Below are positions 2,833-32,000 of a DNA stretch of 32,000 nucleotides, piece by piece. Source of the stretch: Nitrosococcus oceani ATCC 19707 (GTDB lineage: Bacteria > Pseudomonadota > Gammaproteobacteria > Nitrosococcales > Nitrosococcaceae); assembly GCF_000012805.1 (NCBI RefSeq), contig NC_007484.1, positions 60,001 through 92,000 on the forward strand, in the 5' to 3' direction. The notes below the pieces were generated by a model. The model was not told where the DNA came from and made no database searches. It was given only the letters and a program-made list of their open reading frames with translations. Position 1 is the first letter of the stretch; each line of letters starts with the position of its first letter. Position numbers and translations under genes: made by a program.

Positions 2833-3705
2833 ATGCTGATCCCTATTGGCACCATTAGAAGTAATTGCAATGGCTTTGACGCCATCGCTGAAATTGCGGT
2901 CAAAACGAAAAATGTTTGGTTGGATTCTGTTGAATTCGATCTTTCATTCTGCAGTTTTTTCGAGGCCAATATGGCGGCACCGCTATATGCCGTTATTGCG
3001 CGGCTTCGTGATGAGCTGAATGATGTGACCATTACCAATGTGCCAGCAGGAGTAAGTACAATTCTTCGGAAAAACAAATTCTTGAGCGTATTCAGTCAGC
3101 CTGAGTTGACAGACACCAATCAGACAACACTACCATTCAAGATTCTTAAACTTACCGCTGGAGATCAGTTTAACGATTATCTTGATACTTATATGCGAGG
3201 AAGAGGTATTCCGGCCATGTCGGAAGCATTAACCAAACGCTTTAGGCAAAGTCTGTTCGAAATATTTCTGAATGCGACCATTCATTCTCAATCGAAAGCC
3301 GGGATTTTTGTCTGCGGGCAATTTTATCCAAATAAGCATCGACTGGATTTTACCATTGCCGATGCTGGAGTCGGGATCAGGGAAAACGTACGAAGATATA
3401 CTCGGAAACAAAAACTCAATTCCTGCAAGGCCATTGAATGGGCTATGACAGAGGGCAATACCACAAAAACCGGAAATCAGCCGGGAGGTCTTGGATTGAA
3501 GCTCATCAAAGATTTTATTCAGATGAATGGCGGAAAAATTCAGGTTGTATCAAGGTACGGATACTACGATTTCTCTGCAAATGGTGAGTCTATTCGAAAA
3601 ATGAGCAACGATTTCCCCGGAACTTGCATAAATATTGAAATTAACACTGAAGATACAAGCAGTTACTGCTTGAAGTCAGAACTGAAAAGTGAAGACATCT
3701 TCTAG
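2833..3705 (+). CDS. GHKL-superfamily (histidine-kinase-like / SpoIIAB-RsbW-like) ATP-binding protein with an uncharacterised ~140-aa N-terminal region
   Basis: Bergerat-fold boxes are visible: N box FLNATIHS, G1 box IADAGVGI, G2 box GNQPGGLGLKLI. The ATG at 2833 abuts the pglXI stop (TAGATG at 2830-2835). A 60-nt sample at 2881-2940 has 24/60 G+C. Confidence 0.7.
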   Translation: MLIPIGTIRSNCNGFDAIAEIAVKTKNVWLDSVEFDLSFCSFFEANMAAPLYAVIARLRDELNDVTITNVPAGVSTILRKNKFLSVFSQPELTDTNQTTLPFKILKLTAGDQFNDYLDTYMRGRGIPAMSEALTKRFRQSLFEIFLNATIHSQSKAGIFVCGQFYPNKHRLDFTIADAGVGIRENVRRYTRKQKLNSCKAIEWAMTEGNTTKTGNQPGGLGLKLIKDFIQMNGGKIQVVSRYGYYDFSANGESIRKMSNDFPGTCINIEINTEDTSSYCLKSELKSEDIF

Positions 3706-4648: not shown

Positions 4649-7546
4649 TTGGAATCAATGCCTTGGCAATACAGCACCGTTCATAACAGCGCCTGTAAGG
4701 TCATCGAAGAACAGACCTTATGGGGGCAGGCCGTGTGCCGTATCTGGTTGCCGAACCAGGACGCGGTGGTGCGCGTGCCCCGCTCCGCCTTACGGCCGCT
4801 GAGTGCCGACCTGCAACCGGAGATCGAGGCTGGACGCATTGCCTATGTGGCCGCCGCAGCCAAGGTGGCCGAGGTGCTCGAAGGCTCCACCAGCGCCACT
4901 GACGGTCATGTATTGCTGGCTCCCATGGAGTCCAATGTTATCCCGCTGCCGCACCAGATCCACGCCTTGTCCCGGGCTATCTCCGGCGACCGTGTGCGCT
5001 ACCTGTTGGCCGACGAGGTGGGCCTCGGCAAGACCATCGAGGCCGGTCTAGTCATGCGCGAGCTCAAGCTGCGCGGACTGGTTCGGCGAATCCTGGTCGT
5101 CTCTCCCAAAGGCATCGCTACCCAGTGGGTGGCGGAAATGCAGACCCACTTCAATGAGCAGTTCCAGCTCGTGCTGGGTGATGACATCAGCACCTTGCAG
5201 CGCCTGGCCCCAGGGGCGGACCACCGGAACTCAGCCTGGTCGATGTTCGATCAGGTCATCGTTCCCCTGGATTCGGTCAAGCCCATGGACAAGCGGCGGG
5301 GTTGGACCGCCGGGCGCGTTGCCGAATACAATCGCAGCCGGTTCGAGGATCTGATCACTGCTGGTTGGGATCTGGTAGTGGTGGACGAAGCGCACCGCCT
5401 GGGTGGCAGTACCGATCAGGTCGCCCGCTATAAGCTCGGCAAGGGCCTGGCGGAGGCCGCGCCCTATGTACTGCTCCTTTCGGCTACGCCCCACCAGGGG
5501 AAGACCGATGCTTTCCATCGCTTGATGAACCTGCTGGATGAGGACGCCTTCCCGGATATGGACAGCGTTTCCCGCGACCGGGTGGCTCCTTACGTCATCC
5601 GCACGGAAAAACGGAAGGCCATCGATGCCGATGGCAAGCCCCTCTTCAAAGCCCGGCGCACGCAGATGGCCCCGGTAGTCTGGGAGAGCCGTCATCACCT
5701 GCAGCAGCTCCTCTATGAGGCGGTGACCGACTATGTGCGCGAGGGCTACAACCAGGCTCTGCGCGAGAAGAAGCGCCACATCGGCTTTCTGATGATCCTG
5801 ATGCAGCGCCTGGTGGTCTCTAGCACCCGAGCAATCCGCACCACTTTGGAGCGTCGGCTCGCGGCACTTAAGGAAGGCGAGCAGCAAGCCAGCCTGCGCC
5901 TAGCGGAGCTGGAAAACAGTGCGGGGGGATCGGAAAACACAGACGATGAAATAACCGAGCTCTACGACATGGACGGCCAGGAGTTGCTCGATGAACTGCT
6001 GAAATCCCATGTGTTGGCTCTACAGAGCGAAGGCAGTCATGTGGAGACTTTGCTAGATGCGGCGGTTCGCTGCGAGCAGGCGGGGCCGGACGCCAAGGCC
6101 GAGGCGTTGATCGAGTGGATCTACGAGTTGCAAGCCGAGGAAAACGAGCCGGATCTGAAAGTGTTGATCTTCACTGAGTTCGTACCGACCCAGGAGATGC
6201 TGAAGGAGTTTCTGGAAGCCCGGGGAATCTCGGTGGTCACCCTGAACGGCTCCATGGATATGGAGGTACGTGGGGCAGCCCAGGATACCTTCCGTAAATC
6301 GCACCGCGTGCTGCTTTCCACCGATGCGGGCGGTGAGGGTCTAAACTTGCAGTTCGCCCATGTCATCATCAACTACGACATCCCCTGGAACCCGATGCGG
6401 TTGGAGCAGCGAATCGGCCGCGTGGACCGTATCGGCCAGCCCAAGATGGTGCGAGCGATCAACTTCGTGTTTGAAGATTCGGTCGAGTTTCGCGTTCGCG
6501 AAGTGTTGGAACAGAAGCTCTCGGTGATCTTTGACGAGTTCGGCATCGATAAGACTGGTGACGTGCTTGACTCAGCTCAGGCCGGCGAGTTGTTCGAGGA
6601 TGTGTTCGCGCAGGCGTTCGCCAACCCTGATGGTATTGAAACTTCCGTCGATCAGACGGTGACTCGGATTCGCGATGAGATTCAGCAGGTGCGGGAGTCC
6701 TCCGCCATCTATGGCATTTCCGAAGAACTGAATGTGCAGGCGGCTGAGCAGCTGCGCTCCCATCCGCTGCCCCACTGGGTGGAGCGGATGACGGTGGGCT
6801 ATCTCAATTCCCACGGCGGCACAGCCAGCCGTAAACGCTCCTGGTGGGATCTAAATTGGCCGGACGGTCAGGAGCATCGCAAGGCCGTGTTCAATGCCCG
6901 GGAAGCGGACCGGCTGACCGATGCAACCCTGCTCAATCTTGAAAACAGCCGTGTCCGTGGGCTGGCCTTGAACCTGCCGCAGATCGCGGCGGGCCAGCCA
7001 TTGCCTTGCGTAAGCGTGAGCGGTCTGCCAACCAGCATCTCCGGTCTCTGGGGACTCTTTGAGATCCGCCTTCAGGCCGGAATGCACCAGAAGACACAAC
7101 TCCTGCGCATCCCCATGGTGCGGCGCGGTTATGTCAGCGTGTTCCTGAGCGAGGAAGGCAAACTGTTTCTGCCCACGGCCCGGCATATCTGGGATGCGCT
7201 GCAGACAGCGGAAGCCCAGGTGCAAGCCACCCTCGGGCGAGATGAATCCATCACCGCCCATGAGCGTTTGCGGATTGCTGCCGAACAGGCCGGACAGGAG
7301 CTGTTTGACGCCTTGCAGCAGGTACATCTTGCCGCTGTGGCTTACGAGGAGGAACGCGGAATTGTCTCCTTTGCCTCGCGCCGCAAGGCCATCGAACGGG
7401 TTGGATTGCCGGAGGTGCGGCAATTCAGGCTGGCCCGTTGCGACGCAGAAGAATCCGAATGGCGACATGAACTGCAATCGGCGCGGCAGATCGTGCCGGA
7501 AATCCGGTCGCTGCTGATGCTGCGGATTATCAAAAGAGGCGCTTAA
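4649..7546 (+). CDS. brxHII: SNF2-family (SF2) helicase, BREX type 3 BrxHII
   Basis: Helicase motifs LLADEVGLGKTIEAG (I), VVVDEAHRL (II), LLLSATPHQG (III), LLSTDAGGEGLNLQ (V), WNPMRLEQRIGRVDRIGQ (VI). Start is TTG 4649 or ATG 4658. The stop overlaps the pglZ ATG (TAATG at 7544-7548). Confidence 0.85.
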   Translation: MESMPWQYSTVHNSACKVIEEQTLWGQAVCRIWLPNQDAVVRVPRSALRPLSADLQPEIEAGRIAYVAAAAKVAEVLEGSTSATDGHVLLAPMESNVIPLPHQIHALSRAISGDRVRYLLADEVGLGKTIEAGLVMRELKLRGLVRRILVVSPKGIATQWVAEMQTHFNEQFQLVLGDDISTLQRLAPGADHRNSAWSMFDQVIVPLDSVKPMDKRRGWTAGRVAEYNRSRFEDLITAGWDLVVVDEAHRLGGSTDQVARYKLGKGLAEAAPYVLLLSATPHQGKTDAFHRLMNLLDEDAFPDMDSVSRDRVAPYVIRTEKRKAIDADGKPLFKARRTQMAPVVWESRHHLQQLLYEAVTDYVREGYNQALREKKRHIGFLMILMQRLVVSSTRAIRTTLERRLAALKEGEQQASLRLAELENSAGGSENTDDEITELYDMDGQELLDELLKSHVLALQSEGSHVETLLDAAVRCEQAGPDAKAEALIEWIYELQAEENEPDLKVLIFTEFVPTQEMLKEFLEARGISVVTLNGSMDMEVRGAAQDTFRKSHRVLLSTDAGGEGLNLQFAHVIINYDIPWNPMRLEQRIGRVDRIGQPKMVRAINFVFEDSVEFRVREVLEQKLSVIFDEFGIDKTGDVLDSAQAGELFEDVFAQAFANPDGIETSVDQTVTRIRDEIQQVRESSAIYGISEELNVQAAEQLRSHPLPHWVERMTVGYLNSHGGTASRKRSWWDLNWPDGQEHRKAVFNAREADRLTDATLLNLENSRVRGLALNLPQIAAGQPLPCVSVSGLPTSISGLWGLFEIRLQAGMHQKTQLLRIPMVRRGYVSVFLSEEGKLFLPTARHIWDALQTAEAQVQATLGRDESITAHERLRIAAEQAGQELFDALQQVHLAAVAYEEERGIVSFASRRKAIERVGLPEVRQFRLARCDAEESEWRHELQSARQIVPEIRSLLMLRIIKRGA

Positions 7547-19412: not shown

Positions 19413-22400
19413 TCAATTTATGGCACGGCGCGTTTTTAAAAAACGGGTAAGGAATTTTGCTGTATAAGAATTTTTTTTAACTTTTGCAACGGTCTCTGGT
19501 GTTCCTTGGGCAACAATTTGCCCCCCGCCATCACCTCCTTCCGGACCCAGGTCGATAAGCCAGTCCACCTCGGCAATAATGTCCAGATTATGCTCAATGA
19601 CGATCACGGTATTGCCCACTTCCACCAACTGGTGCAAAACCCGGATAAGTTTTTCCACATCCGCCATGTGGAGTCCAATGGTGGGTTCATCCAAGAGATA
19701 AAGGGTGTGCTGATTAGCACTACGATAGGGATTCAGAGGGGCCTTGGCTAGCTCCGTCACCAACTTAATTCGCTGGGCCTCGCCCCCGCTGAGGGTCGGA
19801 CTCGGTTGACCAAGGCTCAGGTAGCCTAATCCTACCGCTTGCAGCAACTGCAAAGGCCGATGAATTCGTTTATGGGCGGCAAAAAACTCAACGGCTTGAT
19901 CAACACTCAGGGCTAAAATCTCACCAATGTTTTTGTCCTTGTAGCGGATCATCAGAGTTTCTTGGGTAAAACGGGCTCCGCGGCAGGATTCGCAGGGAAC
20001 GGTCACATCCGGTAAAAAGCTCATTTCAATTCTTTTTACGCCCTGACCCTCGCATTCTGGGCACCGGCCTTCCTTGGTATTAAAGGAGAATCGGCCTGCT
20101 CCATAACCCCGGATACGGGCCTCCGGCGTGTCGGCAAACAAACGCCGGATAGAGTCCCAAAAACCCACATAGGTAGCCGGACAAGAGCGGGGCGTTTTGC
20201 CAATGGGGGTCTGATCGACTTCCAGCACCCGCTGGATAGCTTTCCAGCCACGAATTTCCTGACAGCCCTGAAAGGTGGTAGTCTCCTTATGTTGGGCCGT
20301 CTGCTTTCGATTCAGCAGGCGCAGGAGGTTCCCATGGAGCACCTGCCGTATCAGAGTACTTTTGCCACTGCCGCTCACTCCGCTCACCCCCACCAACTGT
20401 CTTAGGGGTAAACGGAGAGTTAGACTTTTCAAATTGTGCAGGGAAGCTCCCCGAATCTCCAGGTGGGCTTCGGCTGTTTCGGGGCGGCGCTTTTCCATGA
20501 GGGGATGGGGCAAGGGTTGGGCCAAGCAGCGCCCGGTGACGGATTCTGGATGTTGGAGCAGTGCTTCCACCGTGCCCGCAGCCACCACTTTGCCTCCATT
20601 CACCCCGGCCCCTGGCCCCAAGTCAATGACATGTTCGGCCCGCCGGATAGTGTCTTCGTCATGCTCCACCACCACAATGGTATTGCCTTGGCCCTCCAGC
20701 TTGCCCAAGGTATTCAGAAGCATTCTATTGTCCCGGGGATGAAGACCGATGGTGGGTTCATCCAGGATATAACATACACCCCGCAGGTTGGAGCCGAGCT
20801 GGGAAGCTAGGCGGATACGCTGGGCTTCCCCACCGCTGAGGGTTGGGGCGGCCCGGTCCAGCGTTAAATAAGACAATCCCACCTCTCTGAGGAATTTCAA
20901 CCGAGTTCGCAGCTCGGGCAGGATATCTCGGGCGATGTCCGCCGCCCGCCCTTGCAGCTTCATGGACTGAAAGGTGGCCTCGGCCACTGCTATTGGCATG
21001 CCGGTAAATTCAGCAATATTCCGCTCCTGGAAACGCACCGCCAGGGCTTCGGGCTGCAAGCGCTGTCCCTGGCAAGTAGGGCAAATTTGGCCCGGATTTC
21101 CCTGCTTCTCGGCCCATTCTTTTTCTTCCCCGGTTTGCTCTCCATCAAAATTGGGCAGCACCCGCCCGGTGCCATAACAGCGGGGGCACCAACCTTGTGG
21201 GGAGTTAAAGGAGAACAGGCGAGGGTCCAGTTCTCCAAAGCTGCGGCTACAACTTGGACAAGCCCGTTGAGTTGAGTAGAGAATCTTCTGCTTCTTTTGG
21301 GGAAGAAGAATTTCCACCCTGCCCTGGCCCAGATTAAGAGCCTGCTCCAGCAGGGCATGGAGTTCTTTTTCTGCTGCGGGGGTAACCTTGAGCTCTCCTA
21401 CCGGCAATTCAATGGAGTGTTCCTTGAAGCGATCCAACCGAGGCCAGGGATCTGTGGGAAGCAGCGTCCCATCCACCCGCAGGTGGGTAAATCCTTTGGC
21501 GGCAGCCCATTTGGCTAGCTCGGTATAATAGCCTTTGCGGGCGACGATCAAGGGGGCCAATATCCCCAAACGGCGGTTCCGATAGTCCCCCATAAGCCGG
21601 GCCTGGATAGCCTCTAGGGTTTGGGCCTCAATGGGAATTTTGCAATCGGGGCAATGTTGCTGTCCCAGCTTAACGAAGAGCAGGCGCAGGAAATGGTAAA
21701 TCTCGGTGAGGGTGGCTACCGTGCTCTTGAGTCCCCCTCGGCTGGTACGCTGCTCGATAGCTACTGTGGGTGGAATACCAAAGATGGCGTCCAGATCGGG
21801 ACGGGCAGCCGGTTGAACAAACTGCCGGGCATAGGCATTAAGAGATTCCAAATAACGGCGCTGCCCTTCGGCAAAGAGGATATCAAATGCCACTGTACTC
21901 TTCCCGGAACCGGAGATGCCGGTAATCACGGTAAGGCGCTCCCGGGGAATTTGGACATCAATATTCTTTAAGTTATGCTCCCGGGCATTATGGATATAAA
22001 TGAACCCATTGCCTTCTGCTGCCGCGCCCGATTCCTGGGGGGCAGCCTCGGTTTGAGCAGTTCCGCAGGCTGTCCTGTATTGTGCGGGCGCTTCGCCCAC
22101 GGCAGAGGCAGCCTGGAAGATCTCATCAAACGCTTGGGCGTGGTCCCGCAAAGCCTGGCCCGTGTGACTATGCTGGGACCGGGCGACCTTCTGGGGAGAC
22201 CCCATAGCGATCACCTTGCCTCCGCCTTCGCCCCCCTCGGGCCCTAAATCAATGATCCAGTCCGCTGCTTGGATTACCTCCAGGTTATGTTCAATGACCA
22301 CCAGAGAGTGACCTTCCGCCAGTAGGCGGTAAAAGGCTTGGAGCAAGGTGGCAATATCATCGAAATGGAGGCCCGTTGTGGGTTCGTCAAGTAAAAACAG

Positions 22401-25016
22401 CGTGTTGCGGCCCTGTTTATTCCCCCGCGCCTTGGCCAGGTGTCCCGCCAGTTTAAGCCGCTGGGCTTCGCCTCCACTTAAGGTGGGCACCGGCTGACCC
22501 AATGTCACATAACCCATCCCTACTGCTTGGAGAGGTTCGATTCCCCGCTTGATCTCCGGGTAATCGGCGAAAAAATCTAGGGCTTCGGCCACCGTCATGG
22601 CCAGCACCTCGGCAATGGATTTGCCCAGTCCCTGGGCCGAAGGTTGCAGTTTGACCTCCAGTATTTCAGGTCGGTAACGCTGACCATTACAATCGGGGCA
22701 GCGCAGATAGATATCGCTGAGAAACTGCATTTCCACCTGCTCAAAACCACGGCCGCCACAGGTGGGACAGCGTCCCTTCCCGGTGTTAAAGCTAAAGGTG
22801 CCGGCATGATAGCCTCGCTCCTGGGCCAGGGGCTCGGCGGCAAAGGCTTTGCGCAGGCCATCCAGGGCGCCCACATAACTAATGGGATTAGAGCGGGTGG
22901 TTTTACCGATAGGGGATTGATCCACCAACACTACCGTCTGAATATGTTCATGGCCTTCAAGGGCTTGATGACGGCCGGGTGTGCCCACCGGTTTGCCTTT
23001 GAGCTTGCGTAATCCCTTATACAGAATTTCTTGAATCAGGGTGGATTTACCCGAACCGCTAACGCCGGTCACGCAAACCAGGCCATTGAGGGGAAAGCGG
23101 ACATCAATATTTTTGAGATTGTGCTCCGCAGCGCCCCGGATTTCCACATAGGCCGACGCTGGGAGCTTTCTGGTTTTACGACGTTCGGAGACGACCCGCT
23201 TTTTACCTGTCAAGTATTGGCCGGTGAGGGAACGTTTGGCTTGCATCAATTCCTGGGGAGGGCCGAAAAATACTTGTTGACCGCCCCGTTCTCCCGGTCC
23301 AGGCCCCAGATCTAAAATGCGGTCGGCGGCCAGCATTATCTGGGAATCATGCTCCACTAGGAGCAGGGAATTGCCCGCATCCCGCAGGCGTTGCAGTATC
23401 CGGATGATGCGCTGCAAATCACGGGCGTGTAAACCAATGCTCGGCTCATCCAAGACAAACAAAGTATTGACCAGGGAAGTGCCCAAAGCAGTGGTCAAAT
23501 TGATCCGCTGCACTTCTCCCCCGCTTAAGGTCCGTGATTGACGGTCCAACGTCAGATAACCTAGCCCCACCTCCACCAGATAATTGAGCCGGGAGCGAAT
23601 CTCACCTAGCAGCAAATCAGCAGCTTCGTCCAAAGGAGCAGATAGGGTAAGCTGAGCAAAAAATTGCTGGCAGCGTTTAAGGGAAAGCTGCATCACATCA
23701 TGGAGGGTCAGACCAGGTAAAGCCGCCAATCGCCGCTGGGAGAATCGTACTCCCGCAGGCATAAACCGTCTTTTGTCTGGTAATACCTCGTCGGCGCCGG
23801 CTTTGGTTCCCAGCCGCCACAGCAAGGATTCGGGTTTGAGGCGCGCCCCCTGGCAGGTGGGGCAAAGATGATAAGCCCGGTATTTAGACAACAGCACCCG
23901 GATGTGCATTTTGTAGCTTTTGCTTTCCAGCCAGTCGAAAAAACGCTGGACTCCATACCACTTATTTTCCTCCCATTCCCCTTCTCCCGCCAGCACCCAA
24001 TGCTGCTGCTCAGGGGTAAGCTCGCGCCAGGTGAGGCGAGTGGGAATCCCCCGCTTGCGGGCAAAACGCATCAAATCTTGCTGACATTCTTCATAGCTGG
24101 CGCTCTGCCAGGGTTTGATGGCCCCCTCGGCCAGGGTTTTATTTTCATCAGGTACCACTAAATCATAGTCAATCCCCATGGTCCGGCCAAAGCCCCGGCA
24201 GGTCCCGCAGGCCCCCAAAGGGGAGTTAAAAGAAAACAGGCTAGGAAAGGGGTCCTGGTAGGCGATATCACATTGGGGGCAGTGGAGATCAGAAGAAAAG
24301 CGCCAGGGCTGTTGAGGTTGGCGGTGCTCATCTAGGGGATAAACCGTAACATGGCCACGGCCATGTTTGAGAGCCGTTTCCAGGGCTTCCATAATCCGCT
24401 CCCGCCGGCTCGGCTCCAAGCGGACCCGATCCTGAATTGCCTCTAATACCTGATCATGCTGGTGATGGAAGCGAGTATAGCCCTGCCGTAGGAGCTGGTC
24501 TTTTACTTCCTGGAAGGAAAAATTTTCGGGAACGGTAATCTCAAAAGTGATTAAGATCCGGGGAGTGTCGTCTTGTTCTTGGGAGTGAAGAAGAAGCTCC
24601 TTATAAATACCCTCCGGCGTGTCCCGCCGCACCCCTTGCCCGCAGCCCTGGCAGTAAAGTTTTCCGGCCCGGGCAAATAAAAGCTTCAGATGATCATTCA
24701 ACTCCGTCATGGTCCCTACAGTGGAGCGGGAGGTCCGGACCGGGTTGATTTGATCGATGGCAATGGCCGGGGGAATTCCCTCGATACGATCCACTTGGGG
24801 CTTGTCCATCCGATCCAGAAATTGCCGGGCATAGGGGGAGAAGGTTTCCACATAGCGCCGCTGCCCCTCGGCATAAATGGTGTCGAAAGCCAGAGAGGAT
24901 TTACCCGAGCCGCTGACTCCCGTGATCACAATCAGCTCATTGAGGGGAAATTTGAGATTAAGCCCTTTAAGGTTATTCTGCCGTGCGCCCTTGACCTTGA
25001 TAAATGCTTTAGACAT
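19413..25016 (-). CDS. Tandemly fused double UvrA-like ABC ATPase (two complete UvrA units in one polypeptide)
   Basis: Four Walker A sites (GVSGSGKSS, GVSGSGKST, GISGSGKST, GVSGSGKST). Four ABC signatures (LSGGEVQR, LSGGEAQR x3). Several CxxC zinc modules. The second unit restarts with FIYIHNAREHNLKNIDV near nt 22010, after a low-complexity Ala/Gln/Glu linker. Start placed at ATG 25016 (MSKAFIKVKGARQNNLKG), which has GGAG 5 nt upstream. The ORF track extends to 25043. Confidence 0.9.
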   Translation of the reverse strand: MSKAFIKVKGARQNNLKGLNLKFPLNELIVITGVSGSGKSSLAFDTIYAEGQRRYVETFSPYARQFLDRMDKPQVDRIEGIPPAIAIDQINPVRTSRSTVGTMTELNDHLKLLFARAGKLYCQGCGQGVRRDTPEGIYKELLLHSQEQDDTPRILITFEITVPENFSFQEVKDQLLRQGYTRFHHQHDQVLEAIQDRVRLEPSRRERIMEALETALKHGRGHVTVYPLDEHRQPQQPWRFSSDLHCPQCDIAYQDPFPSLFSFNSPLGACGTCRGFGRTMGIDYDLVVPDENKTLAEGAIKPWQSASYEECQQDLMRFARKRGIPTRLTWRELTPEQQHWVLAGEGEWEENKWYGVQRFFDWLESKSYKMHIRVLLSKYRAYHLCPTCQGARLKPESLLWRLGTKAGADEVLPDKRRFMPAGVRFSQRRLAALPGLTLHDVMQLSLKRCQQFFAQLTLSAPLDEAADLLLGEIRSRLNYLVEVGLGYLTLDRQSRTLSGGEVQRINLTTALGTSLVNTLFVLDEPSIGLHARDLQRIIRILQRLRDAGNSLLLVEHDSQIMLAADRILDLGPGPGERGGQQVFFGPPQELMQAKRSLTGQYLTGKKRVVSERRKTRKLPASAYVEIRGAAEHNLKNIDVRFPLNGLVCVTGVSGSGKSTLIQEILYKGLRKLKGKPVGTPGRHQALEGHEHIQTVVLVDQSPIGKTTRSNPISYVGALDGLRKAFAAEPLAQERGYHAGTFSFNTGKGRCPTCGGRGFEQVEMQFLSDIYLRCPDCNGQRYRPEILEVKLQPSAQGLGKSIAEVLAMTVAEALDFFADYPEIKRGIEPLQAVGMGYVTLGQPVPTLSGGEAQRLKLAGHLAKARGNKQGRNTLFLLDEPTTGLHFDDIATLLQAFYRLLAEGHSLVVIEHNLEVIQAADWIIDLGPEGGEGGGKVIAMGSPQKVARSQHSHTGQALRDHAQAFDEIFQAASAVGEAPAQYRTACGTAQTEAAPQESGAAAEGNGFIYIHNAREHNLKNIDVQIPRERLTVITGISGSGKSTVAFDILFAEGQRRYLESLNAYARQFVQPAARPDLDAIFGIPPTVAIEQRTSRGGLKSTVATLTEIYHFLRLLFVKLGQQHCPDCKIPIEAQTLEAIQARLMGDYRNRRLGILAPLIVARKGYYTELAKWAAAKGFTHLRVDGTLLPTDPWPRLDRFKEHSIELPVGELKVTPAAEKELHALLEQALNLGQGRVEILLPQKKQKILYSTQRACPSCSRSFGELDPRLFSFNSPQGWCPRCYGTGRVLPNFDGEQTGEEKEWAEKQGNPGQICPTCQGQRLQPEALAVRFQERNIAEFTGMPIAVAEATFQSMKLQGRAADIARDILPELRTRLKFLREVGLSYLTLDRAAPTLSGGEAQRIRLASQLGSNLRGVCYILDEPTIGLHPRDNRMLLNTLGKLEGQGNTIVVVEHDEDTIRRAEHVIDLGPGAGVNGGKVVAAGTVEALLQHPESVTGRCLAQPLPHPLMEKRRPETAEAHLEIRGASLHNLKSLTLRLPLRQLVGVSGVSGSGKSTLIRQVLHGNLLRLLNRKQTAQHKETTTFQGCQEIRGWKAIQRVLEVDQTPIGKTPRSCPATYVGFWDSIRRLFADTPEARIRGYGAGRFSFNTKEGRCPECEGQGVKRIEMSFLPDVTVPCESCRGARFTQETLMIRYKDKNIGEILALSVDQAVEFFAAHKRIHRPLQLLQAVGLGYLSLGQPSPTLSGGEAQRIKLVTELAKAPLNPYRSANQHTLYLLDEPTIGLHMADVEKLIRVLHQLVEVGNTVIVIEHNLDIIAEVDWLIDLGPEGGDGGGQIVAQGTPETVAKVKKNSYTAKFLTRFLKTRRAIN

Positions 25017-25071
25017 TAAGACTCCGCGAAATAGGAACGGCATGTTCCTCTAATATTGATGTAGAGTTTAG

Positions 25072-25909: not shown

Positions 25910-26765
25910 CTATCCCTCCAAATCGTCCAATGGACTTGTCACCCCATGACCGCCCTGATTTAAAACATGGGTATAAATCATCGTCGTTTCTAAATCACGA
26001 TGTCCAAGCAAGTCTTGAATCGTTCGAATATCAATGCCGCGTTGCAGCAAATGCGTGGCAAAACTGTGCCGAAAGGTATGTGCAGAAACTCGCTTAGTAA
26101 TACCCGCTTGTCGAACCGCAGCCTTGATCGCCTTATTAATCAGCGATTGATCTATATGATGGCGTCGAGTCAAACCCGACAGAGGATCTACCGATAGCGA
26201 ACGGGCCGGAAACACATATTGCCAGCCCCATTCCCGTTCGGCATGAGGATATTTTTTTGCCAGCGCATACGGCAAATACACTGCACCGAAGCCGTCGGCC
26301 AAATCCTGCTCGTGAATCGCCTTGACCTTTTCTAAAATGATTTTGCAGTAACGGTATCATGGCCGCAGAAAGCGGGGTTACCCTGTCTTTATCGCCCTTA
26401 CCAGAGCGCACGGTAGTCTGTTTATAATCGTAATCGAGATCCTGCACCCGCAACCGAACGGCCTCGCTAATCCGTAAGCCGCTGCCGTATAACAGTTTCA
26501 CCACTAACTGCGCCACGCCTTCAACCCGTGGCAATACTTGCCTGATCTCGTCCAACGACAACACTACTGGCACACGCCGACTGGTTTTGGAGCGAATGGC
26601 CTCGATACGCTTGGTCAGCGGCATATCCAGAACCTGCTTGTATAAAAACACCAACGCATTTTTAATCCGCTCGCAATAAGAGCGCTCGGTGTGCAGCGAA
26701 TAATGCTTGAGCCGCATGATGCGGCGAACATCTTCCAGCAAGGTTGGCGATTTGATTCTTGACAT
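25910..26765 (-). pseudogene. intI: Integron integrase (IntI) pseudogene: internal in-frame deletion plus a 1-nt frameshift
   Basis: IntI-specific patch [31 protein letters not shown]. Catalytic boxes [28 protein letters not shown] and [16 protein letters not shown]. The N-terminal HYSLHTERSYCERIKNALVFLYKQVL lacks ~40 aa relative to IntI1 (RTEQAY...QALAALLFFY). NHFRK|[16 protein letters not shown] needs a frame change near 26325-26332. Confidence 0.8.
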
Positions 26766-26928
26766 CAAATAGTTAGTGGCTATAGTGAGGCAAACTATCA
26801 TTATACACGTATTCTTTCCAAGCAAAGAGTTACTGGAGAATCATTTTTATGGCTCCAAGTTAGTCCGAGAAGGTTTTCCTGAATATAAAAACAGACTGCA
26901 TTGTGGCGCCCACCAACTTGAACTTGTA

Positions 26929-27738
26929 ATGTTCTCTGAAGAAGTCCTTTCGCGTTATTTTGACCACCCAGAGTGGTATGAAATTGATGACTCATTATCT
27001 GGAGGGCATATATGGGCGAAATCAGAAGCCCCTGAAAACCGATACTTGTACGTGAGGCATGGAAAGCGAAAGCTAGATAATGGTCAGGCAGCAGTCACAG
27101 CGATTTTTAAAGATTTGTATGCTATGAGCCCTGAAGAACAAAGACATTGGCATGCATATGAATTAAGTGAAGCGAGGTTTGATAGTAATGATCCAAACTT
27201 TGCTCGATTCGTTGCCCGAACATATGACGGCGCTTGGGTTGACTTCCCTAAGCCACTTCAAGAGGTATTAAACCGAATTACTGAAATTAACCAATTATTC
27301 GGTGAAGAGCTACTGTTCAAAAAGTGCCAGAACGATCACTTTAGGCCACCCGTAGAAAATACAAGAAAGTCATACTACGACAGCTGTAGTGAATTCTATA
27401 AGTTGATTGGCCCTGATAGTTTAAATCAAAAACTAATCAAAAATATCCTAAAGAAGGAGTTTTCTATTGCGGATGTTGAGCTGATACATACAGAATCAAA
27501 AAGACCACTAGGTACAATCCAATTGCTTGAATTGCTTGAAGAAAAAATGGGTATTGATGGAGTTATTTCCAGCCAGATTAGGTTGATCGGCAAAGATCGC
27601 ATGGAGGCAGATCACAAGATTACGTCTTCAGTTATAGAAGAGCATAATTTTACAGAAGAGTTTATTTCTCTCTGCCAAAATTTTTCTTGTGCAGCCAATC
27701 AATTCAAACAGAGGCTCCAGCAGCATGCACTCACATAA
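26929..27738 (+). CDS. Hypothetical protein (first integron cassette), no recognisable domain
   Basis: The long ORF 26776..27738 starts at a GTG only 10 nt from the divergent intI start. The first in-frame ATG is 26929 (MFSEEVLSRYF). It is followed directly by an attC-like site. I recognise no motif. Confidence 0.5.
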   Translation: MFSEEVLSRYFDHPEWYEIDDSLSGGHIWAKSEAPENRYLYVRHGKRKLDNGQAAVTAIFKDLYAMSPEEQRHWHAYELSEARFDSNDPNFARFVARTYDGAWVDFPKPLQEVLNRITEINQLFGEELLFKKCQNDHFRPPVENTRKSYYDSCSEFYKLIGPDSLNQKLIKNILKKEFSIADVELIHTESKRPLGTIQLLELLEEKMGIDGVISSQIRLIGKDRMEADHKITSSVIEEHNFTEEFISLCQNFSCAANQFKQRLQQHALT

Positions 27739-27804
27739 CAATAGCATGTTGGCGGACTGGTTTTCCGCTGCGCTCCAACCCAGCCGCAAATGCGGGCGTT
27801 ATGC
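27733..27804 (+). other. attC-like recombination site 1
   Basis: Inverse core CATAAC (27734-27739) and core GTTATGC (27798-27804). Inner pairing GCAT/ATGC. Overlaps the stop codon of the upstream ORF. Confidence 0.6.
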
Positions 27805-27828
27805 GTAAATTAAAGCGGAGGGAAAATT

Positions 27829-28731
27829 ATGAACAAAATCGGATTTCCAACAAAAGAAAAAGAACTCCATAATCATCATATCGATTCTACAATATGGAAT
27901 GATCTCAGGTTTCGAGACGACGATATAATTATCTCGACCTATGCCAAAGCCGGAACAACCTGGATGCAGCAAATCATTGCTCAGCTGCTGTTTAATGGTG
28001 CAGAAGGATTGGATGTCGCGGAGATATCGCCTTGGGTCGACCTCCGAGTCCCGCCCAAGGAAGTCAAACTTCCCTTAATCGAAGCCCAGTCACATCGACG
28101 ATTTCTAAAAACCCATTTACCTGTGGACGCGTTGGTATTTAGCGACAAGGCAAAGTATATCTACATTGGCCGAGACGGTCGCGATGTTGTATGGAGTCTT
28201 TATAATCATCATCTGAATGCTAATACAGCCTGGTATGAGGCGCTAAACGATACGCCTGGCAGGGTCGGACCACCAATCGAGCCCCCACCTTCCTCAATTA
28301 TTCAGTACTTCAACGACTGGCTTGACAATGACGGCTTTCCTTTTTGGTCATTTTGGGAAAATGTTCGTAGCTGGTGGGAAATTCGGAATTTACCTAACGT
28401 TCTCTTGGTGCACTTTGCAAAGTTGAAAGAAGACATGCCGGGAGAAATTCGTCGAATATCCGAGTTCATCGATACACCAATAGACGAATCCAATTGGGAA
28501 AAAATATTGCGACACTGCAGTTTCGATTACATGAAGACCAATGCAACCAAGAGCGTGCCATTGGGCGGAGCTTTTTGGGATGGCGGCGCAGAAACTTTTA
28601 TCCATAAGGGAACAAATGGTCGTTGGCGGGAGTTACTCTCGGCGGAAGATATCGCCCGGTATGATGATCGTGCCGTGTCTGAAATCGGAAGCAATTGCGC
28701 ACACTGGCTCGCAACCGGCGAATTAAGATAG
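27829..28731 (+). CDS. Sulfotransferase-domain protein (PAPS-dependent type)
   Basis: 5'-PSB-like motif YAKAGTTWMQQI and 3'-PB-like motif GRDGRDVVWSLYNH. 300 aa. Confidence 0.7.
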   Translation: MNKIGFPTKEKELHNHHIDSTIWNDLRFRDDDIIISTYAKAGTTWMQQIIAQLLFNGAEGLDVAEISPWVDLRVPPKEVKLPLIEAQSHRRFLKTHLPVDALVFSDKAKYIYIGRDGRDVVWSLYNHHLNANTAWYEALNDTPGRVGPPIEPPPSSIIQYFNDWLDNDGFPFWSFWENVRSWWEIRNLPNVLLVHFAKLKEDMPGEIRRISEFIDTPIDESNWEKILRHCSFDYMKTNATKSVPLGGAFWDGGAETFIHKGTNGRWRELLSAEDIARYDDRAVSEIGSNCAHWLATGELR

Positions 28732-28757
28732 TGAAATAACTTTAGCGGGCACGATAC

Positions 28758-28833
28758 GCATAACAATCGCATGCAGTCCGACAAATTTGCCGCGCTTCGC
28801 TTACAATTTTGCGGCTGATGCGGGGCGTTAGCA
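28758..28833 (+). other. attC-like recombination site 2
   Basis: GCATAACAATCGCATGC ... GATGCGGGGCGTTAGCA. Same subfamily as site 1 (shared CATAACAAT.GCATG and ATGCGGG.CGTTA). Confidence 0.6.
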
Positions 28834-28890
28834 GTTGCACTAAGCCTTCCACATCTTGCAAGCTGAGTAAAAAAGGAATAATTTATACTC

Positions 28891-29154
28891 ATGGATGAGT
28901 TTGAATTCGACGAAGCCAAAAGTCAGGCCAATCTGGATAAGCACGGTATTAATTTCGTGGCCGCCCAAGGTCTGTGGAAAGACCCATGCCTGCTGGAAAT
29001 ACGAGCAAAATCAGAGGGTGAGCCGAGGTTTCTGCTGATAGGCAAGATTGGCGAAAAGCACTGGTCGGCTGTCGTCACATACAGGGAAGCTTGTATTCGT
29101 TTGATTTCAGTCAGGCGCTCTCGCAAGAAGGAGATTGAACTCTATGAAAGCTAA
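28891..29154 (+). CDS. brnT: BrnT-family (DUF497) toxin
   Basis: FEFDEAKSQANLDKHGINF...LLIGKIGEKHWSAVVTYRE..IRLISVRRSRKKE matches the BrnT pattern. Overlaps the downstream antitoxin start. Confidence 0.7.
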   Translation: MDEFEFDEAKSQANLDKHGINFVAAQGLWKDPCLLEIRAKSEGEPRFLLIGKIGEKHWSAVVTYREACIRLISVRRSRKKEIELYES

Positions 29155-29413
29155 AGACTTTGATAAAAAATTCGACGAAGGCCAGGAAGATATTATTGAC
29201 GACCTTGATCTGTCCACAGCCCGTCGCACCAACCTGGAACAAAAGCGAATCAACGTGGACTTTCCTGCCTGGGTCGTAGAGTCGTTGGATCGAGAGGCCG
29301 CGCGTATTGGCGTTACCCGCCAATCAATCATCAAGGTGTGGCTGGTTGAGCGCCTTCAAGCAGAATCTGCTAACAAGCCGCTCAATGGTGACGCCTCAGG
29401 CGGCGCACATTAG
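29144..29413 (+). CDS. brnA: BrnA-type (CopG/RHH) antitoxin
   Basis: MKAKDFDKKFDEGQ...INVDFPAWVVESLDREAARIGVTRQSIIKVWL. ATG at 29144 lies inside the ORF-track entry 29135..29413. Confidence 0.65.
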   Translation: MKAKDFDKKFDEGQEDIIDDLDLSTARRTNLEQKRINVDFPAWVVESLDREAARIGVTRQSIIKVWLVERLQAESANKPLNGDASGGAH

Positions 29414-29426
29414 CGGAGCGTTCGCG
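29368..29426 (+). other. attC-like recombination site 3
   Basis: TGCTAACAAGCCGCT ... AGCGGAGCGTTCGCG. Contains the brnA stop codon. Second attC subfamily. Confidence 0.5.
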
Positions 29427-29477
29427 CCAGAAGATCGGCATATGGCGAAATAGCCATATTTGGGCTATCCTCATTCT

Positions 29478-29768
29478 ATGAACGAATCGCACTTCGAGTG
29501 GGATGAGGCGAAGAACACCGCCAATCAGCGTAAACACGGGGTTTCGTTCTACGAAGCCCAGTACGCCTTTCTCGATCCAAAGCGTGTGATAGCTGAAGAT
29601 CTGAGCCACAGTCAGAATGAGAAACGGTATTACTGCTTTGGCACTAATCGGGAAGGCACCGGTATTATCACGGTTCGGTTCACGTATCGATCTGGCCGCA
29701 TTCGAATAATTGGTGCGGGTTACTGGCGCAAAGGTAAGAAGGTCTATGAGCAAGCGAATTCGGTATAG
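29478..29768 (+). CDS. brnT: BrnT-family (DUF497) toxin, second divergent copy
   Basis: MNESHFEWDEAKNTANQRKHGVSFYEAQYAFLDP...RIRIIGAGYWRKG. ATG 29478 preferred over the TTG at 29460. Confidence 0.75.
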   Translation: MNESHFEWDEAKNTANQRKHGVSFYEAQYAFLDPKRVIAEDLSHSQNEKRYYCFGTNREGTGIITVRFTYRSGRIRIIGAGYWRKGKKVYEQANSV

Positions 29769-29982
29769 CGAAGAACCGATTGGTGAGATTAAGCTAGTGC
29801 CAGATTTTCTTCCGTCTCCCGAAGAGTTGGCACTGAAGAACGAGCAAACGAAGGTCACTATTTCGTTGAGTTCCGAGAGCGTTGCCTTTTTCAAGGAAGA
29901 GGCGAAGAAGCATCGTATGCAATATCAAAAAATGATCAGGCAACTGCTCGATGAGTACGTCGCGCAGCAGAAGAGGCGCTAA
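29746..29982 (+). CDS. brnA: BrnA-type antitoxin, second copy
   Basis: MSKRIRYSEEPIGEIKLVPDFLPSPEEL...VTISLSSESVAFFKEEAKKHRMQYQKMIRQLLDEY. Overlaps the brnT 3' end. Confidence 0.7.
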   Translation: MSKRIRYSEEPIGEIKLVPDFLPSPEELALKNEQTKVTISLSSESVAFFKEEAKKHRMQYQKMIRQLLDEYVAQQKRR

Positions 29983-30034
29983 CAAGTCGCTACAGCGGAC
30001 TGCCTACGGCGGCCTCTGAGCTCAAGCGTTCGCG
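29977..30034 (+). other. attC-like recombination site 4
   Basis: CGCTAACAAGTCGCT ... CAAGCGTTCGCG. Shares GCTAACAAG.CGCT and AGCGTTCGCGCC with site 3. Confidence 0.5.
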
Positions 30035-30147
30035 CCGCTGCGCATCGCGAACAACCGTTCGACTGGCAGAACCTCCTGCATCATCAGATGCCGCACACCT
30101 ATTACCTAGGAGAACCCGCCAGTCAATTCCCCGATAAGGAGATATTA

Positions 30148-30867
30148 ATGACGGAATCAAATAAAAGTAATGCGATCGTGCTTGGCGTTTGTCTAATTAT
30201 AGCCTTATCCTCTCTCGGCTATCTTCTTGGTAATGCCGCTATTAGATTTAAGGAGTACGAGCGAACAGTTACCGTAAAAGGACTATCGGAAAGGGAATAT
30301 AGTGCAGATATCGTAATCTGGCCCATCCAGTTCAGTACCGCAAGTAATGATCTCGAAGAGATGTATAGATCCATAGATGCAAGCACTGAAAAGATAAAAT
30401 CGTTTCTTGAAAGCGCTGGCGTTAATGCTGATGAAATCTCATATTCATTGCCTGCGATCACCGATAAGTCAGCGCAACAGTATGGTAATCAAGCTAAATC
30501 TGAATTCAGATATACCGCCTCCCAAACAGTAACCGTTTATTCCAAAAACATTAATGTGGTGCGAGACGTTATGGGAAATATGTCTGATTTAGGAAAGCGG
30601 GGAATTGTATTTACTGGCGGTGATTATCAATCACAAACTGAATATATTTTTACACGCCTAAATCAGGTGAAGCCTGAAATGATCGAAGAGGCGACAAGGA
30701 AGGCCCGTGAAGTTGCAGAGAAATTTGCCGCCGATTCTAAAAGTACTTTAGGAAAGATTAAATCCGCCTCTCAAGGGCAATTTAGTATTAGTGCCAGGGA
30801 TAAGAACAATCCTCATATTAAAAAAGTGAGGGTGGTTTCAACAGTTGCTTACTATCTTTCAGACTAA
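30148..30867 (+). CDS. SIMPL-domain (DUF541) protein with an N-terminal membrane anchor
   Basis: MTESNKSNAIVLGVCLIIALSSLGYLLG hydrophobic anchor. VTVKGLSERE...IWPIQFS and the C-terminal SASQGQFSI...VRVVSTVAYYL resemble SIMPL family proteins. ATG 30148 is preceded by AAGGAG. Confidence 0.6.
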   Translation: MTESNKSNAIVLGVCLIIALSSLGYLLGNAAIRFKEYERTVTVKGLSEREYSADIVIWPIQFSTASNDLEEMYRSIDASTEKIKSFLESAGVNADEISYSLPAITDKSAQQYGNQAKSEFRYTASQTVTVYSKNINVVRDVMGNMSDLGKRGIVFTGGDYQSQTEYIFTRLNQVKPEMIEEATRKAREVAEKFAADSKSTLGKIKSASQGQFSISARDKNNPHIKKVRVVSTVAYYLSD

Positions 30868-30877
30868 TTAAATTTAA

Positions 30878-30950
30878 GCATAACAAGAGCATGCAGATGG
30901 ACACAGTGCCCGCTGAGCGTGCCCTGCGCCGCTGATGCCGGACGCTGAGG
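30878..30950 (+). other. attC-like site 5 with a degenerate 3' core (end of the cassette array)
   Basis: GCATAACAAGAGCATGC ... GATGCCGGACGCTGAGG. The 5' half matches sites 1 and 2, but the expected GTTRRRY core is replaced by GCTGAGG. Confidence 0.45.
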
Positions 30951-31149: not shown

Positions 31150-31380
31150 GCAGCCAATCCACCATAGACATCATGTGGCCAGTGCACCCATCAAAAGGAG
31201 GAGATTGAGTCGTTCGATATTCTTCGAACAACTGATGGTAATACCGAATCCGTATTTATCACTCTTTAAATCATGGAAATACTCCTCGATAAAGGCCAAC
31301 CTTGGATCAACACCATTATCAGTTGCGATAAACAATCCAACCGGGCTTGATGCCAGGGCAAAAAGCGCTTAAGTTCTCGG
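31150..31380 (-). pseudogene. Possible decayed DDE transposase remnant
   Basis: Minus-strand translation around 31255-31320 reads DNGVDPRLAFIEEYFHDLKSDK, reminiscent of the W.IEE.F..LKS block of IS4/IS701-like transposases. There is no ORF of 60 aa or more on that strand. Confidence 0.25.
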
Positions 31381-31777
31381 GCAAGTACATGAGCCGTGTT
31401 CATCAGTTCGTGATCCAGGTTCGTTTAGTCTCGGACCTGCTATCATAGCTCTACGGCTCATGTACTACACAAACCATAACTGACTGACCATACTAATAAT
31501 ATCTCGGTTTTGCACCGTACTAAGGAAAAACCTTATGAAGGTAAGCACAAACGCCGGGTTTCAGGATCCGGCGGCGGTATTTGCAAACCCAAACCACATG
31601 CATATTGCAATCGATAAGCGCTGTGCCCGGTAGTAATGACTTCCATAAGCCCACAACATACCGCCGCTAGGCTCATTATCCACGGCTAAACCCGTGGTGT
31701 TCTGCCAGTCAACTCCCCGATTAGGCGTTTGAGTATCCCTTTTGTTTAAATTTTTTAATTTACCTAGGAGATAAAGA

Positions 31778-32000
31778 ATGAAAAAGTTAATAAAGTATTT
31801 TGCTTTCTATCTAGCGACATTTTCATCGGTTTTGTATGCTGATGGAGAAGCATCATCTTATATTGCTAATATTGGCACCCATGCAAACTTAAAAGATCTA
31901 GAAAGAGTGAGGCAGGAATTAGTTGCGCCGCCACATTTGCCTGATCATCAACAAGCCTATTCTGGAAAGCCTCGAATTGTAGAAATAGAAATGGTCATTG
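31778..32000 (+). CDS. nirK: Copper-containing nitrite reductase (NirK-like) / multicopper protein, 5' partial (runs off the window)
   Basis: AGGAG at 31766-31770, ATG 31778, and signal peptide MKKLIKYFAFYLATFSSVLYA. LERVRQELVAPPHLPDHQQAYSGKPRIVEIEMVI parallels the NirK N-terminus (LPR.KV.LV.PPFVH.H.Q...GPKVVEFTM.IEE). It is absent from the ORF track because no stop is reached. Confidence 0.55.
   Translation, partial: MKKLIKYFAFYLATFSSVLYADGEASSYIANIGTHANLKDLERVRQELVAPPHLPDHQQAYSGKPRIVEIEMVI

Follow-up and report, generated by a model that had tools for sequence, protein, structure and literature searches.

The DNA considered here is a stretch of 32,000 nucleotides from the chromosome of Nitrosococcus oceani ATCC 19707 (NC_007484.1, positions 60,001 to 92,000, forward strand), hereafter called the window, whose numbering is used throughout unless otherwise stated. 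Beside a DNA-3-methyladenine glycosylase gene, it carries a minus-strand gene that looks like an integron integrase gene (intI) and, divergently, a series of plus-strand genes separated by imperfect palindromes. The locus therefore raises the question of whether it is an integron, i.e. an integrase gene, its attI insertion site and an array of gene cassettes each ending in an attC site, and, if so, whether any part of it could still work. A reading of the letters and open reading frames alone (the sequence-only reading) had taken the locus for a chromosomal integron whose intI is inactivated, and this proposal was borne out by the integrase family model TIGR02249, by the integrase structure 2A3V, by the lesions mapped in the gene and by a covariance model of attC. 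The locus is very probably a sedentary chromosomal integron whose decay is far advanced, with a dead platform and leftover cassettes.

Three lesions in the integron platform

The intI pseudogene occupies positions 25910-26765 of the minus strand and is split over two frames. In a profile search, the minus frame 25910-26302 matched positions 189-315 of TIGR02249 with 206 bits, and the minus frame 26136-26825 matched positions 69-179 with 138 bits. The C-terminal piece aligned to the Vibrio cholerae integrase VchIntIA (PDB 2A3V) with an E value of 9e-44, the alignment running through the IntI-specific insertion, which matches VchIntIA 185-318 residue by residue. Alignment with the integrases of congeners showed that the catalytic residues R-K-HxxR-H-Y are all kept across the two frames (LRISE, GKGDKDR, HTFRHSF, LLGHRD, IYTHV). 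Both the IntI-specific insertion and the full set of tyrosine-recombinase boxes, as listed by the sequence-only reading, are therefore present. Membership in the family was judged by a single open frame above its cut-off of 265 bits; no single open frame of the window intI reaches this value. As the profile match is divided between two frames and leaves out positions of about 25-68, the gene must be regarded as a pseudogene of the family and not as a working member.

The first lesion is a deletion in the N-terminal domain, with its junction at 26661|26662. Sized against the closest full-length copy, which belongs to a sister species (G005, locus L020), the gap amounts to 132 nt, that is 44 codons, and the deletion is therefore in frame. 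Compared with the intact integrases of the congeners, it shows as 41 gapped columns following ...ERIK and takes away most of the N-terminal domain, in agreement with the earlier estimate of about 40 missing residues. The 132-nt segment is retained in a paralogue of intI located at about 1.2 Mb in the same genome.

The second lesion is a +1 frameshift at 26334-26337 (minus strand), where a run of four T is found instead of three; in the alignment, the frame changes after ...LLQNH. A frame change had indeed been predicted, and it is real, but its placement at 26325-26332 was not correct.

The third lesion lies upstream of the gene. In two sister copies of this intI lineage, the start codon is preceded by a shared attI region of about 190 nt that reaches to a G|TTAGA crossover. 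Homology of the window to these regions stops at about 26808, some 40 nt upstream of the intI start codon, and at the same junction begins the homology of the first cassette, at residue 84 of its protein family and, at the DNA level, from 26806 onwards in comparison with a cassette of Oceanobacter antarcticus described below. Since the homology to the attI region ends exactly where that to cassette 1 begins, a single deletion, with its junction at 26806-26808, took away attI together with about 271 nt of cassette 1 and fused the intI leader to the interior of the cassette. Comparison with the two sister copies thus revealed no attI next to the window intI. The three candidate attI cores that had been suggested between intI and the first open reading frame must be given up, because GTTAGTG at 26772 lies in the conserved intI leader, while GTTACTG at 26829 and GTTAGTC at 26859 fall within what is left of the cassette 1 coding sequence.

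A candidate outward promoter of the Pc type (TTGACA-16-TATAGT, plus strand, 26759-26786) overlaps the intI start. It was recognized by its match to the consensus alone, at 11 of 12 positions, and the array may be expressed from it.

The attC sites and the cassettes

A home-made palindrome scanner (AAC...GTT plus folding) returned more than 2,300 matches in the genome; as these were not enriched in arrays, and sites 2, 3 and 5 of the window were missed, the scanner was replaced by a covariance model. This model, R1, was built from 16 sites located outside the window, in other arrays of three Nitrosococcus genomes. In its consensus fold, a spacer separates the R stem from an L stem with a single bulge, and 8 of 14 pairs show compensatory changes. 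When the whole 32-kb window was searched on both strands with filters off, the top five matches, all on the plus strand, were exactly the five imperfect palindromes that the sequence-only reading had put forward as attC sites. Their E values range from 3e-7 to 0.03; the next match scored 9 bits, and nothing else in the window fell below E 3. No match was found in the window in Rfam at the gathering threshold.

The five sites fall into two sequence groups. Group A is made up of site 1 (27733-27804; 36.1 bits, E 1e-6), whose boxes are those of an Oceanobacter attC, site 2 (28758-28833; 38.6 bits, E 3e-7) and site 5 (30878-30950; 23.7 bits). Group B comprises site 3 (29368-29426, matched by R1 at 29369-29426; 17.9 bits, E 0.028) and site 4 (29977-30034, matched at 29978-30034; 31.4 bits, E 2e-5). 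The two attC lineages proposed earlier therefore stand as groups, but with two corrections to their motifs: site 1 reads AATGCGGG and not GATGC.GG, and the TTCGCGCC that follows both sites 3 and 4 is part of the downstream cassettes and not of those attC sites. A motif search of the whole genome found neither subfamily motif elsewhere.

Inverted R'' (..AAC) and R' (GTT..) cores are present in sites 1-4. Site 5 has R'' alone, its R' GTT core being lost and its R box unpaired, as anticipated when its 3' core was described as corrupted. On the bottom strand, the sites (1, 2 and 3 among them) fold into 7-bp R stems, unpaired spacers of 2-5 nt and an L stem; the R stem has one mismatch in sites 3 and 4 and is missing from site 5, and site 4 contains two further mismatches internally. 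The extrahelical bases looked for in these folds were found as single-base bulges solely on the 3' (L'') arm; those close to the spacer are mostly C or G, those lying deeper mostly T. The z-scores of the single sites are modest. An extrahelical T ... C pattern in place of T-N6-G is a documented natural and functional attC variant (Larouche and Roy, 2011; PMC3053210). The window pattern, with its bulged bases on one arm of the folded bottom strand, is within that variation, but differs in its spacing of 6-7 nt and in an occasional third bulge.

The window contains one truncated cassette, four whole cassettes and one gene-less cassette. Cassette 1 (26806-27798, plus strand) carries a gene of unknown function that lacks its first 83 codons. 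The remaining product is 91% identical to a 393-amino-acid protein, and the members of its family are uniformly about 393 amino acids long, the window match beginning at residue 84. The complete cassette is found in an array of Oceanobacter antarcticus (locus L031), with 88.7% nucleotide identity over window positions 26806-27809. There, the cassette start GTTATGTGA pairs perfectly with TCACATAAC, its own R'' box, so that the pairing of cassette start and R'' box is supported for cassette 1 through the Oceanobacter copy.

The same pairing was found directly for three cassettes of the window, namely cassette 2 (TTATGCGT against ACGCATAAC), cassette 3 (TTAGCAG against CTGCTAAC) and cassette 4 (TTCGCGCC against GGCGCTAAC, with one mismatch). 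Cassette 2 encodes a sulfotransferase (27829-28731, plus strand; PF00685, E 8.5e-49). Cassette 3 (28891-29413, plus strand) encodes a BrnT toxin (28891-29154; PF04365, 86.5 bits) and a BrnA antitoxin (29135-29413; NF047399, 121 bits), both above the respective cut-offs. Cassette 4 (29460-29982, plus strand) encodes a second, distant BrnT (29460-29768; PF04365, 80.7 bits), also above the cut-off, and a BrnA-like antitoxin (29710-29982; PF14384) that reaches 25.0 bits against a cut-off of 26.1. The two toxins are 37% identical, and the two antitoxins could not be aligned. Cassette 4 recurs with 89% identity in an array of the sister species G005, where the similarity starts exactly at 29421, the predicted crossover base. 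In Vibrio, toxin-antitoxin cassettes stabilize cassette arrays, and the two pairs found here may stabilize the present array. Several cassettes are low in G+C (40%, compared with 50% for the genome), and none of the cassette proteins gave a match in PADLOC.

Between site 4 and the last gene of this part of the array lies a unit that brings the count of five cassettes given previously to six. It is a 106-nt gene-less mini-cassette (30029-30134, plus strand), the medium form of a GC-rich repeat family of 105-165 nt. About 20 copies of this repeat are present in the genome, all of them within cassette arrays; besides the window, they are located at 437-457, 611-619, 1203-1211 and 3111-3113 kb. 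Copies of the family begin at the G|TT crossover of an attC and end with CCCCGA|TT, while the window copy ends CCCCGA|TAAGG, one T short. The long form of the repeat has a 13-bp outer stem, and its fold is far more stable on the bottom strand, at -114.7 kcal/mol compared with -83.4 kcal/mol (RNA parameters). The SIMPL/DUF541 gene that follows (30149-30867, plus strand; PF04402, E 1.3e-18) has an AAGGAG ribosome-binding site of its own. Its start is probably at 30149, given this ribosome-binding site and the mini-cassette boundary; the rule of pairing between start and R'' box fails for this unit.

On the reading of the locus as a decayed integron, an integron integrase would formerly have captured circular cassettes through recombination between attI and the folded attC site of each, and this capture would have built up an array that is read away from a promoter close to intI. 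This platform would have been lost through the 44-codon in-frame deletion, the mid-gene +1 frameshift and the deletion of attI with part of cassette 1, and the remaining array would now behave as ordinary chromosomal genes.

Possible exchange with another locus and the state of the array

Three IntI-type loci in total were found by profile search of the chromosome and plasmid, and all of them are broken. The copy at 1.2 Mb is frameshifted and its 3' end is missing, and the copy at 1.74 Mb covers profile positions 1-130 only and contains stops. As no match on either replicon passes the TIGR02249 cut-off, the search for a second, intact intI, which had been suggested together with the integron proposal, ended without one.

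The copy at 1.2 Mb is a close relative of the window gene. Positions 26035-26660 are 99.2% identical to it over 626 nt, with 5 mismatches and no gap (BLAST), and the extra T of the frameshift is common to both. This tract begins at 26035, precisely where the 1.2 Mb copy ends. The rest of the window gene, the 3' end at 25910-26034 (minus strand), is absent from the 1.2 Mb copy and has a different history, with about 70-88% identity to the copy of the sister species G005. It was also considered as a remnant of the intI lineage that congeners have at this locus, but this was ruled out by an identity of only 52-68%. These relationships point to a recent conversion or duplication between the two integrons, in either direction, after the frameshift had arisen; the 132-nt deletion would be later than that event. 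The 1.2 Mb pseudogene itself (G000:C1:1201784-1202665, corresponding to window 26035-26784) still has the 132 nt as well as the attI region, but not the last 125 nt. The first attC of its array (L022, about 3204-3263; G000:C1, about 1203204-1203263) is almost identical to the attC of aadA type known from cassettes of class 1 integrons (GCCTAACAATTCGTTCAAGCCGAC...).

Three intI lineages can be distinguished in the genus Nitrosococcus. At this locus beside the glycosylase gene, three congeners have one and the same lineage, whereas the present genome carries another, with about 57% nucleotide identity. Copies of an intI 5' stub with attI are also scattered near 182.7, 487.4, 1430.3 and 1740.2 kb (G000:C1); their lineage is that found at the glycosylase locus of the congeners, and they are 75-86% identical to positions 5496-6185 of locus L015 of G005.

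It is conceivable that the whole proximal block, from intI to the gene-less cassette, was imported or overwritten from the 1.2 Mb integron by gene conversion or by recombination between shared repeats, and that the frameshift was spread in this way. The gapless 99.2% match with its common extra T would fit such an import, as would the restriction of the high-identity tract to the extent of the 1.2 Mb copy, with far greater divergence in the other 125 nt, and the presence of a different lineage at this locus in the three congeners; cassette 4 and the mini-cassette are, moreover, present in the matching integron of the sister species. However, the remaining proximal cassettes are not common to the 1.2 Mb array, and a lineage-A remnant was looked for at the junction without any sign of one. 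We consider the import plausible, but short of probable. More doubtful is the broader proposal, taken as one, that the two integrons swapped platforms by gene conversion, a broken intI overwriting the resident one in a process of concerted decay, and that nirK, a copper nitrite reductase gene further along the array, is present there as a cassette-like unit.

The reading of the locus as an integron with a dead platform bears directly on the fate of its cassettes. Since none of the IntI-type genes of the genome is intact, the cell cannot reshuffle the array itself, and since attI is deleted, nothing can be inserted at this platform; the earlier view that the array would be frozen unless an integrase is supplied in trans is thus supported. 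Even so, attC sites 1-4 retain all their structural features and might still be excised or copied by an integrase arriving on a plasmid or mobile integron. Cassettes of arrays lacking an integrase may be mobilized by incoming integrons (Cury et al., 2016; PMC4889954), and cassette 1 DNA is 89% identical to that of a bacterium of a different order. Against such residual mobility, there is no intact IntI-type gene on the chromosome or plasmid, attI is gone, and the cassette block 26725-30028 is identical in the contigs of three public sequencing runs, two of which may derive from the source strain. An array that is still being mobilized therefore appears unlikely.

The contigs of the same three runs bridge both intI lesions with zero differences, a single-copy contig over 26631-26727 spanning the deletion junction in each run, and neither lesion is therefore an assembly error. 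The frameshift does sit in a short homopolymer, which could suggest an artefact concealing an integrase merely 44 residues shorter that is still made. Nevertheless, the T-run has the same length in the 1.2 Mb paralogue and in the read-based contigs, which show no gap there, the deletion takes most of the N-terminal domain, and attI is lost regardless, so that this explanation is very improbable. That the locus is no integron at all, but an XerC/D-type recombinase beside unrelated palindromic repeats, is hardly credible: generic tyrosine recombinase models do match the intI frames, but the XerC/D models score less than half as much as TIGR02249 (XerD 92 bits against 206 on the C-terminal piece), the enzyme comes out as IntI with an insertion that aligns to 2A3V, and the repeats fit, on one strand only, an attC model built from other arrays, with one cassette common to a foreign integron.

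Some points nevertheless weigh against the reading as a decayed integron. The folding z-scores of single sites are modest (0.2 to -3.6), site 3 has a score of 17.9 bits only, site 5 has no R' core, and the attC evidence comes from a surrogate model of the same genus, R1, used in place of that of IntegronFinder.

The type of integron described here is already well known (PMC4889954), and existing knowledge of integrons is left unchanged. [quoted passage not shown] It differs in that three platform lesions are mapped to the base, including the loss of attI and part of cassette 1, and in that the genome's three intI copies are all dead, two of them with one common lesion.

With the (super)integron of Vibrio cholerae, the array shares its chromosomal location, co-oriented cassettes, toxin-antitoxin cassettes and an integrase with the same extra domain (VchIntIA). 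The Vibrio integrase, however, is active and its attC sites are uniform, whereas the present locus combines a dead platform with a short array of about 11.5 kb, whose attC sites vary in both sequence and length. The integron of Oceanobacter antarcticus (L031) likewise has a plus-strand array beside an IntI fragment and, along with the complete cassette 1, an attC whose R and L boxes are the same; this attC is 90 nt long, compared with 72 nt in the window, and the Oceanobacter cassette retains its own start, which the window copy has lost.

The locus thus provides a base-level example of the death of a chromosomal integron, in which the integrase and the insertion site were lost separately while the cassettes and most attC sites survived. 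Of some interest are the order of the lesions as mapped, the shared frameshift, the occupation of a conserved locus by a different intI lineage, and the presence of nirK in the array. In addition, the 89% identical cassette in the Oceanobacter integron illustrates cassette traffic between marine bacteria of different orders. For the host, two toxin-antitoxin pairs, a sulfotransferase and nirK are placed in horizontally acquired integron DNA.

Insertion sequence relics, nirK and the far end of the array

Beyond site 5, the transposase debris noted earlier was identified as a fragment of an IS4-family transposase (31171-31335, minus strand; NF033591, E 9e-7, profile positions 237-273 only) and one of an IS200/IS605 transposase (31520-31654, minus strand; NF033573, E 8e-6; PF01797, E 2e-4). 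A search of plasmids with this region of insertion sequence (IS) relics found nothing similar, and its own genome gave almost no match. A 60-nt stretch at 31645-31704, with a CCACGG..CCGTGG hairpin, is shared with G000:C1:456110-456170 and abuts mini-cassette DNA in both arrays. This stretch is probably an IS200/IS605 end, and its position hints that IS200/IS605 may target the mini-cassette repeat. In the window, it is followed by the last 22 nt or so of another mini-cassette (31704-31725, plus strand), which ends CCCCGA|TTAGG.

The array is interrupted by these relics, but it is not truncated at site 5, as had been supposed; it continues in decayed form as far as a terminal attC about 6.4 kb past the end of the window. 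The first gene after the relics is nirK (plus strand; TIGR02376, 459 bits), which starts at 31778, reaches the window end at 32000 and runs on to window-equivalent position 32896 (L021 1778-2896). It is preceded by a mini-cassette end (CCCCGA|TTAGGCG) and followed downstream by an R''-type half-site (ACCTAACAAG). This gene, the sole copper nitrite reductase gene of the genome, is thus located inside the array. Its G+C content is 40.5%, compared with 50.3% for the genome, and its relatives in congeners are only 30-38% identical and are found at other loci. Relatives with 55-65% identity occur in 6 of 400 sampled Gammaproteobacteria, and R1 detected no attC near them. If it is true that nirK came as a cassette, an integron gave a marine ammonia oxidizer a step of nitrifier denitrification.

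Further genes of the array beyond the window include a PIN-like gene, a transporter, dehydrogenases and others, and most of the attC sites there are reduced to half-sites, so that R1 recognized only the terminal attC, at window-equivalent 38303-38356, with 14 bits. Both flanks of the array are syntenic in the sister species G005. On the right, synteny resumes about 1.4 kb before the terminal attC and runs into the flank, which implies that the oldest cassettes are shared with G005 and the proximal ones are not. In two other congeners (G003 and G004), the right-flank genes are elsewhere, and in G004 they are about 275 kb away from the intI of the glycosylase (mpg) locus.

The word integron is absent from a published strain comparison (PMC7285500), from which no locus-specific claim was drawn here. 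On the other side of the platform, the glycosylase gene is adjoined by a gene for a duplicated UvrA-like ABC ATPase of 1876 amino acids (19413-25043, minus strand), and both genes are kept in all four species of the genus.

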